From a virus, in the IMG/VR virus record IMGVR_UViG_3300028840_004447: a DNA stretch of 64,000 bases. One strand, 5' to 3'. The stretch's first letter is position 1. Each line of letters starts with the position of its first letter. Of this stretch, positions 2,178-56,193 are shown in pieces. The notes beneath the pieces were generated by a model. That model was not told where the DNA came from, did not search any database, and saw only the letters and a program-made list of their open reading frames with translations. The translations under genes were made by a program, and so were the position numbers.

Positions 2178-3410
2178 ATGAAAGAAACAGACCTGAACAA
2201 AATCAATGACATGCTGGGCCGTACTTTCGAGGAGTTCAAGAAACGCAATGATCAGGCCCTCGAGGAAATGGAACAGCGAAATGGCGTTGAGACCGGGGAG
2301 ACCCGGGCGGCAGTCGAGAAGGTTGAATCGGATATCACCGAGATTCGCAAGGCCATGAAAGAGATTGAGGTCCGCATGAATCGACCCGACTTCAGCCCGG
2401 AAGGGGAGCAGACCGAGGAGCAACAGCTCCATCACCGCGCCTTCGAGAAGTACTTGCGCGTCGGTAAGAACCCTGATGAAGATTCCCAATTTGCCTTCAC
2501 GCCTGATGAGCAGCGTGCTCTGACTTCGCAGTCGGACGGCTCCGGCGGATTCCTCGTGCCGATCGATTACGAGGGTGGGATCATCATGAATGCCTACAAC
2601 CTTGCCGAACTGCGACCCATTTGTCAGGTCGGGACCACGGGCAGGGATGTTGTCCAGCTGGGTGCGCTTTCCAAACCCTCCGTCGGATGGGGCAGGGCCG
2701 GTGTGCAGATCAGTACGCAGACCTTGACCGCAGGCGGACGCCGAATCACCATATATCCTCTGTATGGTCTGACGACCGTGGCCGTGGATACCTTGGATGA
2801 TGCGGAAGCGAACATCGAGCAAGAACTGAATGACGCCTTCTCCCGGGCAATCGCCGAGGCCGAGGATGATGCCTATGCAGCCAGCGCGGGTGATGACAGC
2901 CCGAAGGGCGTGGTAGCGGATACGAATGTTCAGGCCAATTATGTTGCCTCGGGCGTTGCAGCCGCTATCTCGGACGCCAATAACAACGGCGTGGATGTCC
3001 TGATCGAAATGCTTCAGTCGCTGAACAAGATCTATCGTCGGAACGCGACCTGGGCCATGAACAGCACGACCGAGGGTCTGGTCCGTAAGCTGAAGAACGG
3101 TGAGGGTGACTACATTTGGGCAATGGGCGTGGGTGCTACCGGAACCGTCGGGGCCAATCCTCCGACTCTGCTTGGTCGCCCGATCGTGAATCCTGAAGGA
3201 ATGCCTGATGTGTCCGCTGGTACCTACCCGATCGTAATCGGTGACTTTATGGCCGGCTACAAGATCCGGGACAACCGCGGCCTGTCCGTGCAGCGTCTGG
3301 TGGAGAAGTATGCGGACTACGATCAAATCGGCTTCAAGGTCAAGAAGAGAACCGGCGGTATGGTTACTCTGCCCGAGGCCTTCGTCCCGATGAAAATCGC
3401 GACCAGCTAG
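2178..3410 (+). CDS. Major capsid protein, HK97 fold
   Basis: N-terminal coiled-coil delta domain, then SDGSGGFLVP..., GDDSPKG, NATWAMN, LLGRP, GDF..GY.I.D, KRTGG. Position after the protease and a strong RBS fit. Confidence 0.93.
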   Translation: MKETDLNKINDMLGRTFEEFKKRNDQALEEMEQRNGVETGETRAAVEKVESDITEIRKAMKEIEVRMNRPDFSPEGEQTEEQQLHHRAFEKYLRVGKNPDEDSQFAFTPDEQRALTSQSDGSGGFLVPIDYEGGIIMNAYNLAELRPICQVGTTGRDVVQLGALSKPSVGWGRAGVQISTQTLTAGGRRITIYPLYGLTTVAVDTLDDAEANIEQELNDAFSRAIAEAEDDAYAASAGDDSPKGVVADTNVQANYVASGVAAAISDANNNGVDVLIEMLQSLNKIYRRNATWAMNSTTEGLVRKLKNGEGDYIWAMGVGATGTVGANPPTLLGRPIVNPEGMPDVSAGTYPIVIGDFMAGYKIRDNRGLSVQRLVEKYADYDQIGFKVKKRTGGMVTLPEAFVPMKIATS

Positions 3411-3476
3411 CAATAGCTGATTCGGTAATCCTCAGGAAAAGCTAACTCTCAGAAATCCGAAAAGGAGACCAATATC

Positions 3477-5492
3477 ATGAAACATTTCACCCGAATTTCC
3501 GCAATCCTCATGGTCCTGTTCCTGGTTTTTGCAGGAACAGCGTCGGCCCAGCAATACTACAGGCCCTGGGTCAAGACCGTTGAGCTCACTGTTCAGAATC
3601 CCCCGGTCTTTGAATCGGGACTTGGCCTGGCTGACTCCGGCGACGAATGGTTTGTCAATTCCAACGCATCAGGAACCGCTGCCGGTACCAGTTGGACAAA
3701 TGCATGTCTGACTATTGATGCTTGTATCAATCTGGCTACTGCGTCAAACGGGGACATTATCCATATCTCCTCCACCCATGCCGAGTCCTTTACAGCGGCG
3801 GACGGTTTTGACGTGGATAAGGCTGGCCTAACCCTGATCTTCCATGGTGAGGGACAGAACCAGGCCACCTTGACCTTTGCCGATACTGATGCAACCGTTG
3901 CATGTGGCGCGGCCAATGTAACCATCTTTGGTGGCCGCTATCTGGCAGGAATCTCCGCGGTTGTGCTTGGCATAGCTGTTGAGGCTACCTGCGATAATTT
4001 CACGCTCATCAATCCTGTCTTCCCTGAGCCCGCTACATCCTCGTATGAATTTCTGGATGCGATTGATCTGGCTGCGGGAGCTGATAACGTGAAGATCATC
4101 AATGCTTGGGCACGGTCCGCTGATGCTACCGGGGCTGCTCATTTTATCGAGGCCGGCAACGGGGTAAACAACGGGCTGGAAATCATCAATCCTGACATTG
4201 AGGGTGAATACTCTGTCGCGGCCATTTGGTCCGACACGGCTGATCTGGAAACCCGGATCGCTGGCGGTGTTATCACCAATATGACCAATGGCCAGCATGC
4301 GGTCGAGTTCACCGCGGCTGCAACAGGTGTCATTCAGGATATCCTGTTGAGAACGGATGCTCAGGGCACTGCCTTGGATCCGGGCTCCCTTGGTATGTCG
4401 AATGTCCTCTGGGATGATGATGCGGTGGCTGATGCCACGGCTGGTCCTGTTGTACTCGGTGCTCTCGGTCCTGCAACTATAGGTCCGATCAACTCCACCA
4501 CCACGGATTCTGTCAATGGTAAGATCGGGACGGATACCGAGATGGCGGACAGCTCTTTGTATGATCTGCTCGGTGCAGGTGCCAAGACCCTTGCTATTTC
4601 TGCATCAGTAGGTGCGGATGTGGATGGGGCCACGACCGATACCCTCCAGGGTAAGATCGGTACGGATACCGAGATGGCCGATAATTCCTTGTATGATCTG
4701 CTCGGCGCGGGAGCCAAGACCCTTGCTATTTCGACTTCTGTCGGGTCTGATGTAGATTCCGCTACCACGGACAATCTGCAAGGAAAGATCGGTACGGATA
4801 CCGAGCTGGCTGACAACAGCCTCTATGATCTGCTCGGTGCAGGATCCAAAACGCTTGACCTTTCTGCCGCTATTGGTTCCAGTGTCGACGGGACCACGAC
4901 AGATACCCTGCACGGGAAGATTGGAACCGATACCGAAATGGCTGATAGCTCCTTGTATGATATGCTCGGGGCGAATAATGCAACTACCACGGATTCGCTC
5001 AATGGTAAGATTGGAACCGACACCGAAATGGCGGATAGTTCCTTGTATGACATCTTGCTTCAGATGGAGCGGACGGCCACAGGTTCCACGGCTGTCATGG
5101 CCAACGGCGATACGATTTTCACCATTGCCGGCGGACCAATTAAGATCGTTGAACTGGTCTCGGTCTGTATCACCCTGAATGATGCCACAGCATCCACTCT
5201 GCAATATTCGGCTGATCCCACAGTCGGAGCTGCAACGACCATTTCAGGAGCTTCGGCTTCTTTGGCAAATGCGGCCGCGGGATCTGGTGTAGTTCTGAAT
5301 ATGACTGCGCTTGCAACCGCTCCAGACGTAGTGGATCCGCTTGTTGACCTCGGTGGCGTTGATACCCGCGGGATAATTGTGAATGAGGGTATTATCACAA
5401 TCGTGGTTGGGGTCGGAACAACGACCGGTACCTGGAAGCACTATATCAGGTATCAGCCGCTTGCACCCGGCGTGACTGTTACCGGCACATAG
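3477..5492 (+). CDS. Signal-peptide-bearing, repeat-containing protein next to the capsid gene (putative head decoration/fibre)
   Basis: N-terminus MKHFTRISAILMVLFLVFAGTASA. Beta-rich Ala/Thr/Asp/Gly composition with internal 44-aa repeats. Confidence 0.55.
   Translation: MKHFTRISAILMVLFLVFAGTASAQQYYRPWVKTVELTVQNPPVFESGLGLADSGDEWFVNSNASGTAAGTSWTNACLTIDACINLATASNGDIIHISSTHAESFTAADGFDVDKAGLTLIFHGEGQNQATLTFADTDATVACGAANVTIFGGRYLAGISAVVLGIAVEATCDNFTLINPVFPEPATSSYEFLDAIDLAAGADNVKIINAWARSADATGAAHFIEAGNGVNNGLEIINPDIEGEYSVAAIWSDTADLETRIAGGVITNMTNGQHAVEFTAAATGVIQDILLRTDAQGTALDPGSLGMSNVLWDDDAVADATAGPVVLGALGPATIGPINSTTTDSVNGKIGTDTEMADSSLYDLLGAGAKTLAISASVGADVDGATTDTLQGKIGTDTEMADNSLYDLLGAGAKTLAISTSVGSDVDSATTDNLQGKIGTDTELADNSLYDLLGAGSKTLDLSAAIGSSVDGTTTDTLHGKIGTDTEMADSSLYDMLGANNATTTDSLNGKIGTDTEMADSSLYDILLQMERTATGSTAVMANGDTIFTIAGGPIKIVELVSVCITLNDATASTLQYSADPTVGAATTISGASASLANAAAGSGVVLNMTALATAPDVVDPLVDLGGVDTRGIIVNEGIITIVVGVGTTTGTWKHYIRYQPLAPGVTVTGT
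4500..5057 (+). repeat. Intragenic tandem repeat, 132-bp (44-aa) period
   Basis: Five copies of the core GKIGTDTE(M/L)AD(S/N)SLYD. The first two cores start at 4518 and 4650. Confidence 0.92.
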
Positions 5493-33456: not shown

Positions 33457-33897
33457 ATGAGAGGCGAAATCCGAGACCATAATGGGATCAGGTATAAGGT
33501 CCTGACGAACTGGCACCTGTTCCGCAATAGGTATGAACTGCTTGAGCCCTATTTTATTCGCACGGGGTTCATCGGTTATGATATCGAGACGGATCGGGTT
33601 AAATTGACCCCTGACGGAATGCTGTGCCTGAAAGCAGGATATACATGGGACGGTCCGTCAGGTCCCACAGTTGACACGAAGAACTTCATGCGCGGATCGC
33701 TAGGGCACGATGGGAAGTATGAGCTATTCCGATTAGGTCTGCTTCCTCACACAGGCCGGATCATTGCAGATTTGGAACTTCAGAAGGATTGCTTGAAGGA
33801 TGGAATGTCAGGACTTCGAGCCATGTGGGTCTTCTGGGGTGTGCATCTGTTTGCTTCATTTGCAGCTCGGCCCACGGTCATAATGAAAGGAGTATGA
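33457..33897 (+). CDS. DUF1353-like protein
   Basis: GY.WDGPSGP..DT...R.SL.HD..Y motif and final hydrophobic helix. Confidence 0.7.
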   Translation: MRGEIRDHNGIRYKVLTNWHLFRNRYELLEPYFIRTGFIGYDIETDRVKLTPDGMLCLKAGYTWDGPSGPTVDTKNFMRGSLGHDGKYELFRLGLLPHTGRIIADLELQKDCLKDGMSGLRAMWVFWGVHLFASFAARPTVIMKGV

Positions 33898-34220
33898 AGA
33901 TGAAACTACTGCCAGGATTTTTGATGATAACTGTCCTCGTATTCTCGGGGTGTGGAACAGCCAAGAGGATCGGGCTGGCCAAGCTGGGGATGACCACGAC
34001 CACAATTGAACTAAGCGAGGACAAGAAGAAAGCAGAAATTGTATCCAAGTCGGATTCAAAGGTCACATTCACGGCGGATGCGAATGGAATTACTGGAGCA
34101 ACCGTGGATAATCAGGGCCGGCCAGGTTTGCCTGAACGATTGGCCGAATCCCTGGTCAACAGGACCTCGCTTGTGGTCGGATCCGGGGTGGATACCATTA
34201 AGCAAGATTCCGATGATTAA
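33894..34220 (+). CDS. Predicted lipoprotein
   Basis: ATG 33894 (ATGA overlap). Lipobox VFSG-C. Confidence 0.65.
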   Translation: MKMKLLPGFLMITVLVFSGCGTAKRIGLAKLGMTTTTIELSEDKKKAEIVSKSDSKVTFTADANGITGATVDNQGRPGLPERLAESLVNRTSLVVGSGVDTIKQDSDD

Positions 34221-43371: not shown

Positions 43372-44232
43372 TTAGGCCTCGTCCCCCGTTGCCACGGAGT
43401 AGGTCTTATCCTTCCGGTTGAACTGAATGTCGATCATGTTCTCCGGCTTGGTTCGCTTGGCGTTCCGGAGAATGGCACAGGCGGTGACCAGATTCTTGGC
43501 ATCATACCCGGTCCGCTCAATGAGCTCTTCCTGCTTCCAGACAGGCTTCTCATCGAAGGCGGACTTCAGGAGACTGGACTTGGTAATCCGCGGTGCCGGT
43601 TTGCCGAGGGCCTTCAGCCCCTCGAAGATGGTGCTGGTCAGCTCCCCTTTGTTCTTCCCGGGGCCGTCCAGTTCGAGGGCCTTCTTCAGGCGTTTCAGAT
43701 CCCCGACGGACAGTTCAGCGAGGTCTTCCTCTTTCGCGATTTCCATGTAAACATCGTCGGCGCAGATCTCTTTTGCGGCCTTCGCGCTGTTCACGGTTTC
43801 CTTCAGTGTCATTTCGTTTGTGTCAATGATAAATCTCTTAGCCATGGTGGGCCTCCTTTTAGTGTTGGGTCTCGATGACCCGAAGTTAGATTTGATGAAA
43901 GCTTCCTGATCTTCCACGCTGAGTACTATATCACCTTTCAAGCGCCTTGTAAATAAATTTTTCCGTATTTCTTTGTTATTTTTCACGCAATTACGGCAGT
44001 ATACGTCCGTCTCTGCCTTGAAGAAGCACCATCGTTTGTTGACCAACCATCCATGGAAGGGACAGTTGAAATCATCAGGCACGAACTCCCGATCAGTCTT
44101 CTTCGTGCAGTCCTCGACACATGGCCAGACATTACCCTTAGACTCCCGATGGTAGTATTGCCTGTATGCGCATTCGAGGACGGTAATCTGATCTTCCTCT
44201 TTCTCCTGATTCGGACAGATGAACTCGGTCAT
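43372..44232 (-). CDS. Winged-helix-like DNA-binding protein, family member 1 (internal start 43845; Cys-rich N-extension)
   Basis: Internal RBS AAGGAGG before MAKRF. C-terminus ITKSSLLKSAFDEKPVWKQEEL.ERTGYD.KNL..A..ILRN.KRTK. Confidence 0.6.
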   Translation of the reverse strand: MTEFICPNQEKEEDQITVLECAYRQYYHRESKGNVWPCVEDCTKKTDREFVPDDFNCPFHGWLVNKRWCFFKAETDVYCRNCVKNNKEIRKNLFTRRLKGDIVLSVEDQEAFIKSNFGSSRPNTKRRPTMAKRFIIDTNEMTLKETVNSAKAAKEICADDVYMEIAKEEDLAELSVGDLKRLKKALELDGPGKNKGELTSTIFEGLKALGKPAPRITKSSLLKSAFDEKPVWKQEELIERTGYDAKNLVTACAILRNAKRTKPENMIDIQFNRKDKTYSVATGDEA

Positions 44233-48307: not shown

Positions 48308-48844
48308 TCAGTCAACCAGCAGATAGGTCTTCGAGACCCGATCATACTTCACCCGAAGGATCTGATCCTCTTTGGTCCGTTTGGGGTTCCGAAGGATGGC
48401 TAGGGCCACGGTCAGGTTATTCTTATCATAACCGGTCCGCTTCAGAAGCTCATCCCGAGTCCAGACCACCTTCTCATCAAAGGCGGATCTGAGCAACGAG
48501 GCCTTAGTAATACGGACAGGCTTATCATCCGCCTTTGGGGCCTCATCAGCCTTCGGGGTTTCAGGGATCAGGTCTTCCGGTTTGGTATCCGGTGCCACAG
48601 TGTTCTCATCCTCTTCCTCGAGGGTCGGGACAGATTCCATCTCATCCCAGAGCATCTGAGCAAGCTCTGCCTTCTTCATATTGGCAGCTCCCACCTTATT
48701 ACCGAGGACCTTCTTCAGCTTACGGAGGGTCGGGATGGACAGAGCCTTGCAGAGTTCCTCTGCGCTGTTCACTACGGCCACGTGATCCTGGTTATTGTCA
48801 TTGCTCTCGATTGCCCCTGTTTCCTTATTGATGTGAACGGTCAT
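48308..48844 (-). CDS. Winged-helix-like DNA-binding protein, family member 2
   Basis: Start 48844 (RBS GAAAGGAG). ITKASLLRSAFDEKVVWTRDELLKRTGYDKNNL..AL.ILRNPKRTK. Confidence 0.65.
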   Translation of the reverse strand: MTVHINKETGAIESNDNNQDHVAVVNSAEELCKALSIPTLRKLKKVLGNKVGAANMKKAELAQMLWDEMESVPTLEEEDENTVAPDTKPEDLIPETPKADEAPKADDKPVRITKASLLRSAFDEKVVWTRDELLKRTGYDKNNLTVALAILRNPKRTKEDQILRVKYDRVSKTYLLVD

Positions 48845-48907
48845 TTTGATCTCCTTTCTGTGTTGTGTATGTGGTTTGTTTTGTCTCATGATCTAGCAAT
48901 AGTATAC

Positions 48908-48924
48908 TGCCAAACCTGTGCCAA
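48908..48924 (-). promoter_or_regulatory. sigma54-like (-24/-12) promoter
   Basis: TTGGCACAGGTTTGGCA, with GG-N10-GC spacing. Confidence 0.6.
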
Positions 48925-49034
48925 AAAGGAGAAAACTGCGAAACTTTTTTCGATGCAAATATTCGCAATGATTCTAAGATGTTAGCAGGCTATGTGTTTC
49001 TTTGGGGATCAGGGGATGGGTAGCAGGTAGGCCT

Positions 49035-49177
49035 GAAAATTCACGTATATGAATCACATTTTTGTAGGAAACGAATATTTGCAATGATCATAAGGACTTA
49101 TGCGGATTTTGCGAAATTCACGTATTTGAACCGAAAAATCGCAGATTTGCATAAGCCCTTATAATCATTAGCAATAT
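49035..49177. repeat. Intergenic direct and inverted repeats
   Basis: AAATTCACGTATwTGAA at 49037 and 49114. Imperfect ~40-bp inverted repeat 49075-49114 / 49139-49177. Confidence 0.75.
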
Positions 49178-49213
49178 GCACAGTTCACGATATTCTGTTT
49201 TTTGAACCCTTTA

Positions 49214-49774
49214 CTATTTCGACAGGATCCAGGTCGCTATCTGATCCTCGGGGCCATATTTTGCATGTAACTCGACCCGAAGACTGTGATCAGAAAAGAA
49301 GGAATTGTAATCATGATAAAAGCAATGCTTCGACGGAACCCGTCCTTCGATTCCGACTGATGAAGTTAGGAAGATCAGCCCGTTGGAAATCCGAACGTGC
49401 TCTGCAAAGATCCCGGCCAGGTCCTGAGGAGGAACATGCAGAAGGACATATGAAGAGATAACCAGATCAAATGCCCCCTCTGCTTCAGGGATCTGGTGGC
49501 CGTCCCATCCATTTGGCCGTTGCCCTGTTGCAGCTAGACAGCACGTTCGCATGGATTCCACAAAGTCATACATGGTCAGCCGAGCGCGGAACAGCAAACC
49601 TTTCTTCTCTAGGGCTGAATAGATCCGACCATAGCCAGACCCCACCTCGCAAATCTTTCGGAGAGGTTCCGTTTGCAGCAAGGCGGACAGGTAGTCCAGT
49701 TCAATATCATGGGTTTCTCCGCGGTAGGACTTCCCCCGCGCTTCCCAGTATTCTTTCGGATTGTAAGTGGTCAC
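49214..49774 (-). CDS. Class I SAM-dependent methyltransferase (small-molecule/glycan type)
   Basis: YWE.R, ICEVGSGYGR, FDLV.S..VL.HV. Confidence 0.85.
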   Translation of the reverse strand: MTTYNPKEYWEARGKSYRGETHDIELDYLSALLQTEPLRKICEVGSGYGRIYSALEKKGLLFRARLTMYDFVESMRTCCLAATGQRPNGWDGHQIPEAEGAFDLVISSYVLLHVPPQDLAGIFAEHVRISNGLIFLTSSVGIEGRVPSKHCFYHDYNSFFSDHSLRVELHAKYGPEDQIATWILSK

Positions 49775-50388
49775 TTTCCCTCCTGAAGGGTATAGGTTTT
49801 TGCAGCCCGGTCGAACTTGACTTCGAGGATCAGATCGGGCTTTGTCCGTTTGGGGTTTCTCATTATGGCTAGAGCCGTGTTCAGATTACGAGCATCGTAT
49901 CCGGTCTTCGTTAGCAGATCATCCTGAGCCCATGTGGGCTGTTCTGCAAAGGCCTCTCGGAGTAGGGCTGTCTTGGTCTTCTTCTTGGGCCCGGTCGGCT
50001 GCTTCCGTGGTGGCCGTTTGTTTGCAACGGGTCCTCTGGGTTTCCGATCCCGTTTCCCTGCGTTCGGGTTGCTATAACTGAAGATCAGGGGCACATCTGA
50101 TGCTTCCCGGTTGGCCAGATCCTCGGCCGTGATTGTCTTCGGGGGATTGTCCTTCGCGTACTGAATCCCTGCACAGATCGGGCAGGACTTGATATGCTCC
50201 CAGAAGTTATATTCAGGATGCTTCGGGCATTTGAAGTTACCCACTTTCATATCCTCCTTTCGGTGATGGCAGATCGGACAGTTGTCCTCTTTCCAATCAT
50301 AATGAGGAAATCCACAGAACTTGCAGAAGTGATGGAACTGGGGATCGAAGATGAACCGCCGTTCTTCAGTCATTGTCTTTGGCCTCAT
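49771..50388 (-). CDS. Winged-helix-like DNA-binding protein, family member 3, with zinc-ribbon N-terminus
   Basis: Several CxxC pairs. TKTALLREAF.EQP.W.QDDLL.KTGYD.RNL..AL.I.RNPKRTK. Confidence 0.65.
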   Translation of the reverse strand: MRPKTMTEERRFIFDPQFHHFCKFCGFPHYDWKEDNCPICHHRKEDMKVGNFKCPKHPEYNFWEHIKSCPICAGIQYAKDNPPKTITAEDLANREASDVPLIFSYSNPNAGKRDRKPRGPVANKRPPRKQPTGPKKKTKTALLREAFAEQPTWAQDDLLTKTGYDARNLNTALAIMRNPKRTKPDLILEVKFDRAAKTYTLQEGK

Positions 50389-51002
50389 TCTCCCGCTGGA
50401 TCTGCTTGGCCATCCAGCATATCATAATAAAGAACAGAACTAGCCAAATGAGGAAGCAGGGCATAGTGGGGAATGAGTCCGCGATCAGAATCAGCATACT
50501 CGCCCCAAGTGTTGCACCTACCAAAACTTTACCCGCGTTGCATATGAATTGCCGTATCATCCTGTTAGCTCCTTATCCAGAAAATCCTGAAGGACCTGGA
50601 CAATCGTCAGAGCATCCTCGATTGGGTGATGCATCTGATATGAGATGGAATGGTTTTCATTGTGGATCAGTTTCAGCCACGTGCCGTCTCGATCCTCAAC
50701 AACCTCTGCTCGGATAGGGTCACGCATCGGGATTCTCCTCGTAGAATTTCTCCCATCGTTTGGACTCGCCCGGCTTGCAGGTCAGATGGTGCTCAACCTG
50801 TTCGGGGGATTCTGCATATGCGCCACAGTCATTACAGACATGGACACCAGCCTCTTCGATTTCGGTATATTCCCGTTCGGGGATCTGTTCATCAGGAAAG
50901 CAGGTCTCGCACATCGGGTCACCGCATTTCTCTTCCCATTCGCCCATTGATCTAACCTCCGTGGGCAGGATCCGAAGACCCTGCCCTGGTGTCAATTGTG
51001 GG

Positions 51003-51743
51003 TTAAGCAGCCTTCAGGGCTACCATATAGTCGTCAGCGACCCCGTGAAGGGTATCAGTCTGGCGAGCAATCTGCCACAGGCTGGTCTCTCTCATCAGCC
51101 GGGTGGCTGCACCGTGCCAGGTGTACAGAGTCGGGGCCTCGGTCTGCGCGACCTTCAGCTCCTCATCATGGCAGGCCAAGAACTGGGGGAATTTCCCCGG
51201 GCTGAAGACCCCGCGGTCCATTGCATCATAGGTCAGGACCTTGAAGGCTTCCGATTCCAGGGGGAACTGATTGAGCTCATCCAGCCAGTCCACCTGATAC
51301 TGGATCTTCGAAATGAGCTGGCCGACTGCCCGATGAGCAACCTCGTGGATCTCGGCCTCATCCAGATGAGCAGTGTGCCGACGGAACTCCAGGAACTCTC
51401 CCGAGAAGGCCATGTTAGAACAGACGAAGACCTTCGTGCCGGCTGTGATTCCCAACGCGAAAGTCTTACGGATGGAGTTGCGGAAGCCGATCTGCCAACC
51501 GATCTTGTCCGTGCCGCCGTCCAGACCCCATGTGCCGAAGAGGTTATCCCCATCGGCTGCGAGGGAGTAGTCCCGATCCGTTACCACCAGCCCGTGGTCC
51601 TGAACTGCCTTGCCCAAGCAATCGAGCACCTTGCCGTGGCTGTACGGGCGCCAGGTTTCGGTGAACTCAGGTTCCTTGACTGCCCTTACCGCTGCCTCAC
51701 TTACCCTTGTACCGTGTCCGTGTTCTGCGATCCTTGCTGTCAT
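51003..51743 (-). CDS. DUF932-family protein
   Basis: P.SH...L, FRNS......GI.AG..VFVCSNM.F, RRHT. Confidence 0.8.
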   Translation of the reverse strand: MTARIAEHGHGTRVSEAAVRAVKEPEFTETWRPYSHGKVLDCLGKAVQDHGLVVTDRDYSLAADGDNLFGTWGLDGGTDKIGWQIGFRNSIRKTFALGITAGTKVFVCSNMAFSGEFLEFRRHTAHLDEAEIHEVAHRAVGQLISKIQYQVDWLDELNQFPLESEAFKVLTYDAMDRGVFSPGKFPQFLACHDEELKVAQTEAPTLYTWHGAATRLMRETSLWQIARQTDTLHGVADDYMVALKAA

Positions 51744-51787
51744 GTTGACCTCCTTATTTAAGTGTGAATATCTGAACTGTTAAAATG

Positions 51788-51816
51788 AATGTATCACGGA
51801 ATAATTTCTTTGTAAA
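51788..51816 (-). promoter_or_regulatory. sigma70-type early promoter repeat
   Basis: TTTACA-N17-TACATT. Confidence 0.75.
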
Positions 51817-52300
51817 CCCCTTTTTTGAAAAAAGATCAAAAAAGTTTCAGCCTAACTTCGCGGCCTCTTTCAGACGGTCGATGGCCTTTAGAAGAGCATT
51901 GATCTCCCGGTTGTGGGATTTCTTCTCATTATCGGCTGCGATAATATGGTCGGCGATTTCCAGTCTCAGAAGATTGATTGCACGTTCCATTTGATTCTCC
52001 TTTCGGGGATCTGCGGACAGATCCCCAGTCGGTTAGTAGATTGAATCCCCATCACAGATGGAGTGGCTCAGGATAACCTCTTTGCAGTTGATGATTGCGG
52101 GCATCTGAACGACCGCAATGGGCTGAACTGCCCGACAAGGATCAAACTCAGGGAACTGCACCGAGGCCTGCTCGGGGTATAGGATCCGACCAGACTTCTG
52201 AAGGTTGCGAGTGGCTGTTTTGATCATTTCGGATTCGATTAGGTCCTGATTCATTTTCCCCTCCTTGGGGTGCCCTGCCCGAAGGCAGGGCGGTTGAGGA

Positions 52301-52483
52301 TTAGATTGACTGAACATAACCCATTTTGGTAAGTTTCTTTTCCAGTTCCACTCGGGTCTTTGCTCGGGCGAGGTAGCTGATGCTGAGGGAATCCTTAGCA
52401 TTCTTTGCATACCAGTGTCCGCTGAAGCCGATTCGGAAGATTTTGATCTGGATGAGTTTTCCTTCTCGTTCGTAGTATGGCAT
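52301..52483 (-). CDS. Small basic hypothetical protein
   Basis: Start 52483 with RBS GGAGGT, downstream of the second sigma54-like promoter. Confidence 0.55.
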   Translation of the reverse strand: MPYYEREGKLIQIKIFRIGFSGHWYAKNAKDSLSISYLARAKTRVELEKKLTKMGYVQSI

Positions 52484-52526
52484 GTTTTTGACCTCCGGGT
52501 TGTTGTTAGTGTTACCATTTAATATA

Positions 52527-52543
52527 TGCCAAATCTGTGCCAA
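52527..52543 (-). promoter_or_regulatory. sigma54-like (-24/-12) promoter
   Basis: TTGGCACAGATTTGGCA, 16/17 identical to the 48908 copy. Confidence 0.6.
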
Positions 52544-52701
52544 GTTAGCAGGATTTATTGAGTTATTATTTGCAATCATTTCAATCATTTAGCGATCTGT
52601 GGTTTTTGGGTTGTCCCGATTCCTGCTGGGAGTTACAAAAGGATGCAATCTGAATTACATCCTTTTGTAACTGGGGGATCGGTTCAGATCCCCCGAGCAA
52701 G

Positions 52702-52984: not shown

Positions 52985-53019
52985 AAAAAGTTTGCGGGGG
53001 ATCAGATCAGATCCCCCGC
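52985..53019 (-). terminator. Intrinsic terminator
   Basis: GCGGGGGATC-N6-GATCCCCCGC followed by AAACTTTTTT on the - strand. Confidence 0.7.
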
Positions 53020-53027
53020 TTGCGGGG

Positions 53028-55387: not shown

Positions 55388-56193
55388 TTAGTTAGTAATC
55401 TCTACCCAGCCGACCATGTCGCACTGCCAGGCGGTGTCTGTTTCCATATCCCAGACAACGTCCCCGACCGACATGGACGTGTGCTTCAGGCCGAGGCCTT
55501 GGATCAGTTCGCGGGCCTCTCCCATCGGGCTCCAAACCTCTCCCTGCATCAGGCGGAACACGTCCCCATATTCTTCTGCCTGGATCTCTTTGACCTGACG
55601 GTGTGTCCGTTCTGACAGAACGTCCTCGCGGGTTAGGTTCTTGTCTAGCATGAAGGTCGGTTCTGTTCGGTAGTATACGGTGAATTCTTTCATTGTTACC
55701 TCCGTGGGGGATCTGAACAGATCCCCCGAGTTTGGGTTAGGCCAATTCTTCCAGGGCCGTCGCGATGGTTTCAATCAGGTACTCAGGAAGATCTGCATCA
55801 TCCAGAATATCCGCCCCTTCACATTCCTCTTTGAAATCCTGGAACCGTTCCATCAGGCGGCTTGTGATATACTCAGCCTTTATAATCTGAATCCCTCTCT
55901 TTACTGAACCGCAGTTTGAACTGTCATAATGTAGCATTTGAACCTCCTAATTTTGGGGAATGGTTATAAACTTCTGGCTATTTGAACTCCAAGCAATCTG
56001 GATTCCGTAATCTCTCAGCACGCCCTCAATCCCGGTTTCCACCCGACCCTTAAGAAAACTGATCCGATCAGCAACCCCTTTCCACTCACGGTCAGGAACT
56101 TCCCCGTTAGCAATTCGGTTGCACAGTTCTTCGTAGGTCTGTTGGAAATCGGTGAGCTGGCTGATCTCTTTTCTCATTTCTTTCATTTCGTTT
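55388..56193 (-). other. Cassette of three small hypothetical genes (within ORFs 55388-55774, 55737-55937, 55947-56252)
   Basis: GGAGGT / GGGAG RBS before internal ATGs, downstream of the promoter at 56235. Confidence 0.45.

Follow-up and report, generated by a model that had tools for sequence, protein, structure and literature searches.

Candidate sigma54-type promoter cassettes, with a presumed dependence on host activators, in the early region of a tailed phage

Sigma54 (RpoN) promoters are silent without an activated ATPase, and the locus analysed here raises the question of whether a phage that encodes no such ATPase makes use of them all the same. The locus lies in virus record IMGVR_UViG_3300028840_004447 (64,000 nucleotides; hereafter the window), 64 kb from an uncultured tailed phage of marine sediment. 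Its genes include those for HK97-type head proteins, PolA, an AEP-TOTE primase, the helicases UvrD and SNF2, and a cluster for base modification. An earlier note on the window had pointed to a sigma54-like motif that occurs twice upstream of early genes (site 1, 48924-48908; site 2, 52543-52527; both on the minus strand). We find that each motif is part of a larger cassette that the note had missed, comprising an IHF-like box (IHF, integration host factor) and upstream palindromes. Judged from sequence comparison, the two motifs are probably the cores of IHF-assisted, enhancer-type sigma54 promoters fired by activators of the host. The case is built on a core geometry, a phased IHF-like box, palindromes, a layout kept in six phages and a genome with no recognisable activator.

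Two -24/-12-type cores and their orthologues

The complete genome is a 77,857-bp circle, rebuilt from the window and two overlapping loci, L050 and L051; the ENA contig of 77,998 is this genome plus a 141-base overlap. Over the whole genome, the minus-strand early arm carries 13 near-identical sigma70 promoters of the form TTTACA-N17-TAnnnT. As the earlier note had remarked, this TTTACA-type repeat (family D2) stands at neither of the genes behind the two motifs; it stands at 11 other positions of the arm, and no sense sigma70 promoter is predicted at either site. Both motifs are exact matches to the 17-mer pattern of the note, both have exactly the spacing GG-N10-GC, and both carry G instead of T at -14, which is the one mismatch to TTGC that the note had given. 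Both are intergenic and sense-oriented before an ATG with a ribosome-binding site (RBS), at 79 nt (site 1) and 59 nt (site 2) from T-26 to the ATG, and the intervening leaders are A/C-rich and unstructured, with strong Shine-Dalgarno sequences (AGAAAGGAG / GGAGG). There is no third match to the 17-mer in the 64-kb window at up to 3 mismatches; the pattern was derived from the window pair itself, and the chance figure is therefore a posteriori.

The position-weight-matrix scan that the earlier note had proposed gave a result that depends on the matrix. With a generic sigma54 matrix, tallied from PMC3844500 (maximum score 22.6), the window sites rank 3 and 6 in the whole genome, with scores of 14.7 and 12.7; six genome sites score at least 12.7, as compared with 0-4 in five shuffles, and the window sites are the sole AT-rich hits in the top twelve. 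With a matrix built from the eight cores of related phages only, the window sites take the top two places of the whole genome, at 23.1 and 22.7 bits, and the next site reaches 18.0. The core by itself is not decisive, because it scores only moderately on the generic matrix, where shuffles equal it 0-4 times.

The relatives in question are five phages (L052/L092, L103, L105, L106 and L108/L109), found through homologues of winged-helix and DUF932 proteins. Their UvrD proteins are 46-61% identical to that of the window phage in four of the five, and the amidotransferase of L105 is 63% identical to the window's. The five contain eight further cores, all in the early block and, in four relatives, directly after UvrD. 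Across the resulting ten cores of six phages, GG, A-22, A-20, G-19, C-12 and A-11 are invariant at fixed spacing, positions -10 to -1 are AT-rich, and the predicted +1 is a purine in every case. The -24 box is TGGCA(C/T) at both window sites and at eight of ten overall (the others being AGGCAT and TGGTAT), and GC at -13/-12, at exactly 10 bp from GG, is present at both window sites and in five of the eight orthologues, with TC at the same spacing in the other three. All ten cores are sense toward a gene or leader, and eight lie 54-79 nt before an ATG with an RBS. L052 and L103 have back-to-back core pairs, each core facing its own gene and the two sharing one array; the L052 pair are the sole TGGCAC-N7-GC matches in 62 kb of that record, and there are about two cores per genome.

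Scans for further examples delimit this set. An exact 17-mer scan of viral contigs gave 46 hits, none of which is a cassette; several are tandem TTGGCACA arrays and the rest are chance hits in coding sequence. The contigs concerned are viral but unrelated (L001, L007, L010, L012, L020, L046 and others), and the tandem repeats in them adjoin tRNA/att ends, integrase ends and iteron-like clusters. Since the 17-mer is also found in such repeats, it is not diagnostic for a sigma54 promoter when taken alone. A box-plus-core scan of viral contigs showed flat spacing and returned, apart from the L052 site already known, a single canonical sigma54 site (L134). A UvrD scan found distant relatives (30-38%) only without a core, the more distant DUF932 fragments L093-L102 have no core in the DNA examined, and an asparagine-synthase-like scan gave no result.

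These results bear on whether the two motifs are a chance resemblance or a neutral local duplication. The shuffled genomes, with their 0-4 equally good sites on the generic matrix, and the motif-only scan of viral contigs, with mostly chance hits and a flat spacing distribution, are what such an origin would give. The position, orientation, box phase and palindrome spacing, however, are kept across phages that share no more than 46-61% UvrD identity with the window phage. We conclude that the orthologous cassettes largely refute a chance origin, which we consider extremely improbable.

IHF-like boxes and palindromes upstream of the cores

A box of the form TAA-N4-TT..AATCATT is present upstream of nine of the ten cores, starting 49-50 or 58-61 bp before T-26, that is, in two distance classes about one helical turn apart. 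The box is helically phased (Rayleigh R 0.82-0.89), with p 0.001 when all nine sites are used and 0.011 when the set is reduced to five; the sites share ancestry and are not fully independent. Compared with the E. coli IHF consensus, WATCAR-N4-TTR, the box has 1-2 mismatches at w2, 105a, 105b, 103a and 108, and more than 2 at w1, 052b and 103b. The eight best boxes in the window genome comprise four at the two promoters, three in repeats between terS and terL and one in an origin-like gap; there is none near any of the 13 sigma70 promoters. The coordinates of the boxes, and of the other features of the two sites, are collected in Table 1.

Table 1. Positions, in window coordinates, of the two cores and the features associated with them
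Feature	Position	Strand	Remarks
Site 1 -24/-12-type core	48908..48924	-	predicted +1 at 48897 (G on minus strand)
Proximal IHF-like box, site 1	48963..48986	-	starts 61 bp upstream of T-26; top hit of matrix from non-window boxes
Class B palindrome (TTCA-N6-TGAA) copy 1, site 1, candidate enhancer site	49040..49053		exact form
Second IHF-like box, site 1	49079..49102	-	box matrix
Class B palindrome copy 2, site 1	49117..49130		77 bp from copy 1
Third IHF-like box, site 1, inverted	49150..49173	+	box matrix
Class B palindrome copy 3, site 1	49193..49206		one mismatch; 76 bp from copy 2; aligned copy in L103
Gene behind site 1: 178-aa protein, C-terminal winged-helix domain	48308..48844	-	predicted local distance difference test (pLDDT) 84.6; H-E-H-H-E-E
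Site 2 -24/-12-type core	52527..52543	-	predicted +1 at 52516 (G on minus strand)
IHF-like box, site 2	52570..52593	-	starts 49 bp upstream of T-26; one mismatch to WATCAR-N4-TTR
Site 2 inverted repeat with 19-bp arms: two class A palindromes (TTACA-N6-TGTAA type)	52631..52672		52633-52648 and 52655-52670; candidate enhancer pair
First gene behind site 2: 60-aa orphan	52301..52483	-	then orphans 52033-52254 and 51847-51990; next sigma70 promoter at 51816

The palindromes upstream of the boxes fall into three classes, A, B and C. For class B, the 77.9-kb genome has just two exact copies, each of them above site 1, and L108 has four copies of the class. The array at site 1 recurs nearly base-exact in L103, with palindromes at 128, 205 and 282 bp as compared with 130, 207 and 283 bp in the window, and boxes at 59, 175 and 228 bp as compared with 61, 177 and 229 bp. 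For class A, the inverted repeat at site 2 could alternatively be an RNA hairpin; looser, class A-related elements lie upstream of both L105 sites. For class C (GTCTCA/TGAGAC), palindromes are present in the L103 and L052 arrays, and a resemblance to some Clostridiales activator sites may be taken as a lead only. No match of the palindromes to a named activator motif has been established. Because the palindromes differ, sites 1 and 2 probably answer to two different activators. The order of candidate upstream activating sequence (UAS), IHF-like box and core, and an enhancer distance of 70-150 bp, are as in bacterial IHF-dependent sigma54 promoters (PMC3844500, PMC3897727, PMC2709558).

A scan of viral contigs for class B pairs gave one real-looking array, in L117, and five chance hits. 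The L117 array, at the end of an unrelated phage contig (10150-10453), mixes three TTCA-N6-TGAA palindromes with TGAGACA sites and an IHF-like box, and has no core in the available part. Its presence in an unrelated phage hints that the palindromes are sites read by host proteins.

Two regions of L050, outside the window, also contain the box. Between terS and terL (~4850-5345) there are three copies of a unit of ~170-190 bp, with an IHF-like box in each; this is a candidate packaging (cos/pac) region. Between an HTH_17 gene and terS (~3070-4210) there is a 1.1-kb non-coding gap in which divergent promoters and an IHF-like box accompany several GCATACGG repeats; this is a candidate replication origin.

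Boxes and arrays of this kind also suit an account in which the cassettes bind sigma54 holoenzyme or IHF unproductively, as decoys for sigma54-RNA polymerase, as roadblocks to read-through, or as a nucleoprotein structure for replication or packaging. Alternating palindrome-IHF arrays are likewise a description of lambda cos and att. The three boxes in the terS-terL repeats and the one in the origin-like gap, the coreless array of L117 and the phage's want of an activator all speak for such a role. A non-promoter role does not account for ten cores in sense orientation, eight of them 54-79 nt before an RBS and ATG, or for back-to-back pairs that each face their own gene, and two or so cores per genome are few for a sponge. 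In L109, moreover, no other promoter-like site is available for the block that the core heads (see below). We consider a role of this kind very unlikely.

The off-consensus -12 box, the presumed activator and the downstream genes

Several observations weigh against the sigma54 reading. T-14 is present in only two of the ten cores, with G in both window sites, and G-13 is replaced by T in three of the ten. In bacteria, by hand count, T-14 is present in 28 of 29 Salmonella sites (PMC3844500) and in ~83 of 87 D. vulgaris sites (PMC4641369), and the A-20 and G-19 that are invariant in the ten cores are present in only 2 of 29 and ~5 of 87 (same sources). The cores of L106 and L108 score only 5.6 and 7.8 on the generic matrix. 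At the level of the cassette, the box fits the E. coli IHF consensus worse at site 1 and is also present at the terS-terL repeats, and no terminator clearly insulates either window gene from upstream sigma70 read-through. Single off-consensus bases do have precedents: T-13 in Salmonella glnH (PMC3844500 Table 3) and D. vulgaris DVU1418, G-14 in the predicted D. vulgaris site DVUA0036 (PMC4641369 file 6), and C-14 in E. coli glnAp2. The loss of T-14 throughout the clade, together with the fixed A-20/G-19, is unexplained by sigma54 preference alone; it may reflect weak, IHF- and activator-dependent cores that descend from one ancestor, or a second protein that reads the site. It is mainly for this anomaly that our confidence in the sigma54 reading is not higher. 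The earlier note's sigma54 assignment is strengthened by the orthologous cores, phased box, palindromes, purine +1 and 15/17 identity of site 2 to glnAp2, and has to be qualified by a -12 box that is off-consensus clade-wide.

A GC-rich hairpin occurs in three copies between early genes (52672-52697, 52995-53020 and 55705-55730); only one copy has a clear U-tract, and some may be processing sites, not terminators.

A second reader of the site could replace sigma54. In this account, another factor, for example the phage winged-helix paralogs bound to an 11-bp direct repeat, TTGGCA-N5-TTGGCA, would activate sigma70 polymerase in the manner of MotA or PhoB, or would modify sigma54 recognition, and the sigma54 likeness would be partly convergent. 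Four of the ten sites have a perfect direct repeat, and in L106 T has been replaced by A in the two halves alike, a concerted change. The constancy of A-20 and G-19 exceeds the requirements of sigma54, several cores are followed by TATA-like bases, and in five of the six phages the gene that comes first behind a site encodes a winged-helix paralog; the tandem TTGGCACA repeats of other viral contigs, interpreted as protein-binding arrays near integrase ends and iteron-like regions, point the same way. Set against this, the second half of the repeat decays to 2-3 of 6 identical bases in five of the ten sites (L052, L103, L108), whereas C-12, A-11 and the spacing stay fixed; there is no conserved sigma70 -10 hexamer, with TAnnnT absent in four of the ten sites and at offsets that wander from 0 to 8 in the rest, and the window sites have no predicted sense sigma70 promoter. 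A phased IHF-like box with distant palindromes is, further, typical of sigma54 and not of class II activation. We judge replacement by another factor unlikely.

Sigma54 might also be used in a form tuned by the phage. The fixed A-20/G-19 and the lost T-14 would then be the signature of cores whose opening a phage factor assists; such a factor might be a winged-helix paralog that recruits a host activator or bypasses the ATPase step. Through interchangeable enhancer modules, each phage would tie part of its early programme to different host signals, and in L106 and L109 the ribozyme-processed early transcript would be tied to them as a whole. We regard this variant as distinctly unlikely.

We therefore return to IHF-assisted sigma54 promoters fired by host activators as the preferred reading, for which the following sequence of events is proposed. 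Host sigma54-RNA polymerase would form a closed complex on a weak core (non-consensus at -14/-13), host IHF would introduce a bend at the box that starts 49 or 61 bp upstream, and a host enhancer-binding AAA+ protein at the palindromes would loop over and open the promoter. In this scheme, a winged-helix DNA-binding protein and three small orphans would be supplied in a conditional dose, beside the constitutive sigma70 early promoters. By analogy with Klebsiella nifH, the weakness of the -12 box would tie firing to IHF and to the cognate activator. IHF has been described as a restrictor of cross-activation (PMC2709558).

The activator itself would have to come from the host. The earlier note had seen no enhancer-binding ATPase in the window, and this extends to the complete 77.9-kb genome, in which none is recognisable by sequence: a six-frame motif search of that genome finds no GAFTGA, its Walker A matches are only UvrD, a nucleotide kinase and two structural-region open reading frames (ORFs), and its 56 unassigned ORFs give no hits to sigma, RpoN or AAA+ families. 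PF00158 is likewise absent from the 85%-complete L052 record. Because the control region is layered and yet the phage has no recognisable activator, a host signalling protein probably decides when these early genes are switched on; we infer, as the note had, that the genes are wired to a host signalling pathway.

The note's further suggestion, a deltaproteobacterium-like host, is plausible and not established. The endolysin has a 52% homologue in a Desulfobacterales metagenome-assembled genome (MAG) and one winged-helix cluster is labelled Syntrophales, but the MAG labels of other homologues conflict (Dehalococcoidales, KSB1, Thermoplasmata, Bathyarchaeia), and a scan of genome contigs returned a single contig, whose bin is archaeal. 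Activators are most numerous per genome in the Desulfobacteria (PMC12316311). The phage DNA is present in sediment and seawater metagenomes, with no RNA run among those listed, and the primase of the closest cultured phages is at most 37% identical. At the end of the late region, the product of 33789-34220 is predicted to be a lipoprotein, since it has a lipobox ahead of a Cys; a diderm host would be in keeping with this. After the 671-aa head-region gene, 5501-5571 matches the Rfam int-alpA motif (46.9 bits, above gathering).

Behind site 1, the winged-helix gene named in the note has a predicted winged-helix fold (Table 1) and is one of three paralogs (the others at 49771-50370 and 43372-44232); the domain has no significant match in Pfam, PHROG, PDB or cultured phages, and gives weak winged-helix and DUF3489 leads. 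In L105, a TTTACA-type sigma70 promoter and RBS lie inside a called 325-aa ORF (2394-2472), and the orthologue of the window gene 48308-48844 probably starts at 2472, under that promoter. Since the L105 orthologue has its own sigma70 promoter, sigma54-type control appears swappable. The first gene behind one core in each of L052 (3703-3828) and L105 (1709-1831) encodes a homologous peptide of ~40 aa.

In L106 and L109, the downstream early genes are separated by hammerhead- or pistol-type ribozymes instead of repeated sigma70 promoters (L106, 6091-6158, 6888-6955 and 7517-7588; L109, 7207-7278, 8248-8325 and 8046-8114; also in L108); the type II hammerhead-like matches are just below the Rfam gathering score, and there is one pistol ribozyme. 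From UvrD to the DUF932 gene of L109 there is no sense sigma70-like match, and the core element is the sole promoter-like site heading the block. Because no other sense promoter is predicted before DUF932, the L109 block argues that the core element is a working promoter. A leader that L106 (5865-5920) and L108 (6685-6745) have in common begins immediately behind the predicted +1. It contains a GC stem and perhaps a GGGG/CCCC pseudoknot; it has no Rfam match, and its folding z-scores are not significant.

If the proposed reading is true, a lytic phage without its own activator makes some of its early genes conditional on the physiological state of its host. Ten natural variants are available in the clade, with three classes of enhancer and a -12 box that is altered systematically, so that the borrowing of host activators is directly testable, and the palindromes may identify the host activators and hence the host.

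Comparison with known promoter systems

The closest likeness is to IHF-dependent bacterial sigma54 promoters (E. coli glnHp2 and pspA, Klebsiella nifH, P. putida Pu, D. vulgaris orp1/orp2; PMC2709558, PMC3897727), in which UAS, IHF site and GG-N10-GC core stand in the order seen here for candidate UAS, IHF-like box and core, with the UAS ~100-290 bp upstream. They likewise include divergent pairs on one array (D. vulgaris orp1/orp2, compared with L052 and L103) and single off-consensus bases (glnH T-13, glnA C-14). The phage cassettes differ in that they belong to a lytic phage without a cognate activator gene, in that T-14 is mostly lost and A-20/G-19 are fixed, and in that up to three IHF-like boxes are interleaved with three palindromes in 76-77-bp steps. 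By its sequence, the cassette appears to work like an IHF-dependent bacterial sigma54 promoter, and strict membership fails at T-14. That failure weakens canonical sigma54 membership, not the claim of sigma54-like working.

Site 2 shares 15 of its 17 bases with E. coli glnAp2, those of the spacer among them, and the two differ only at -14 and -11; the window palindromes, in contrast, are unlike the NtrC site. T4 middle promoters (MotA box and sigma70 -10) and OmpR/PhoB boxes are alike in having a box before an AT-rich stretch, with the 11-bp repeat in some copies and a winged-helix protein nearby; they are unlike the phage cores, which have no conserved -10 hexamer and whose repeat is not kept across the clade. 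The promoter glnAp2 is itself IHF-independent and NtrC-driven (PMC2709558). Htm of phage AV110 (bioRxiv 10.64898/2026.10.06.757011) raises the possibility of a phage-encoded, GAFTGA-less modulator of sigma54-polymerase; Htm is an AAA+ ATPase, whereas the window phage genome has no comparable Walker A protein.

The use of sigma54 by phages is barely studied, and we found one published case, Pseudomonas phage YuA. YuA is lytic, has no RNA polymerase of its own and uses sigma70 and sigma54-like promoters, among them the sigma54-like P015 (bioRxiv 10.1101/2023.10.13.562163 = PMC10914365, citing Ceyssens 2008). YuA provides one promoter with a mapped start in a cultured phage, whereas the cassettes described here provide a predicted, modular and clade-wide form of such control in an uncultured group without a close cultured relative.

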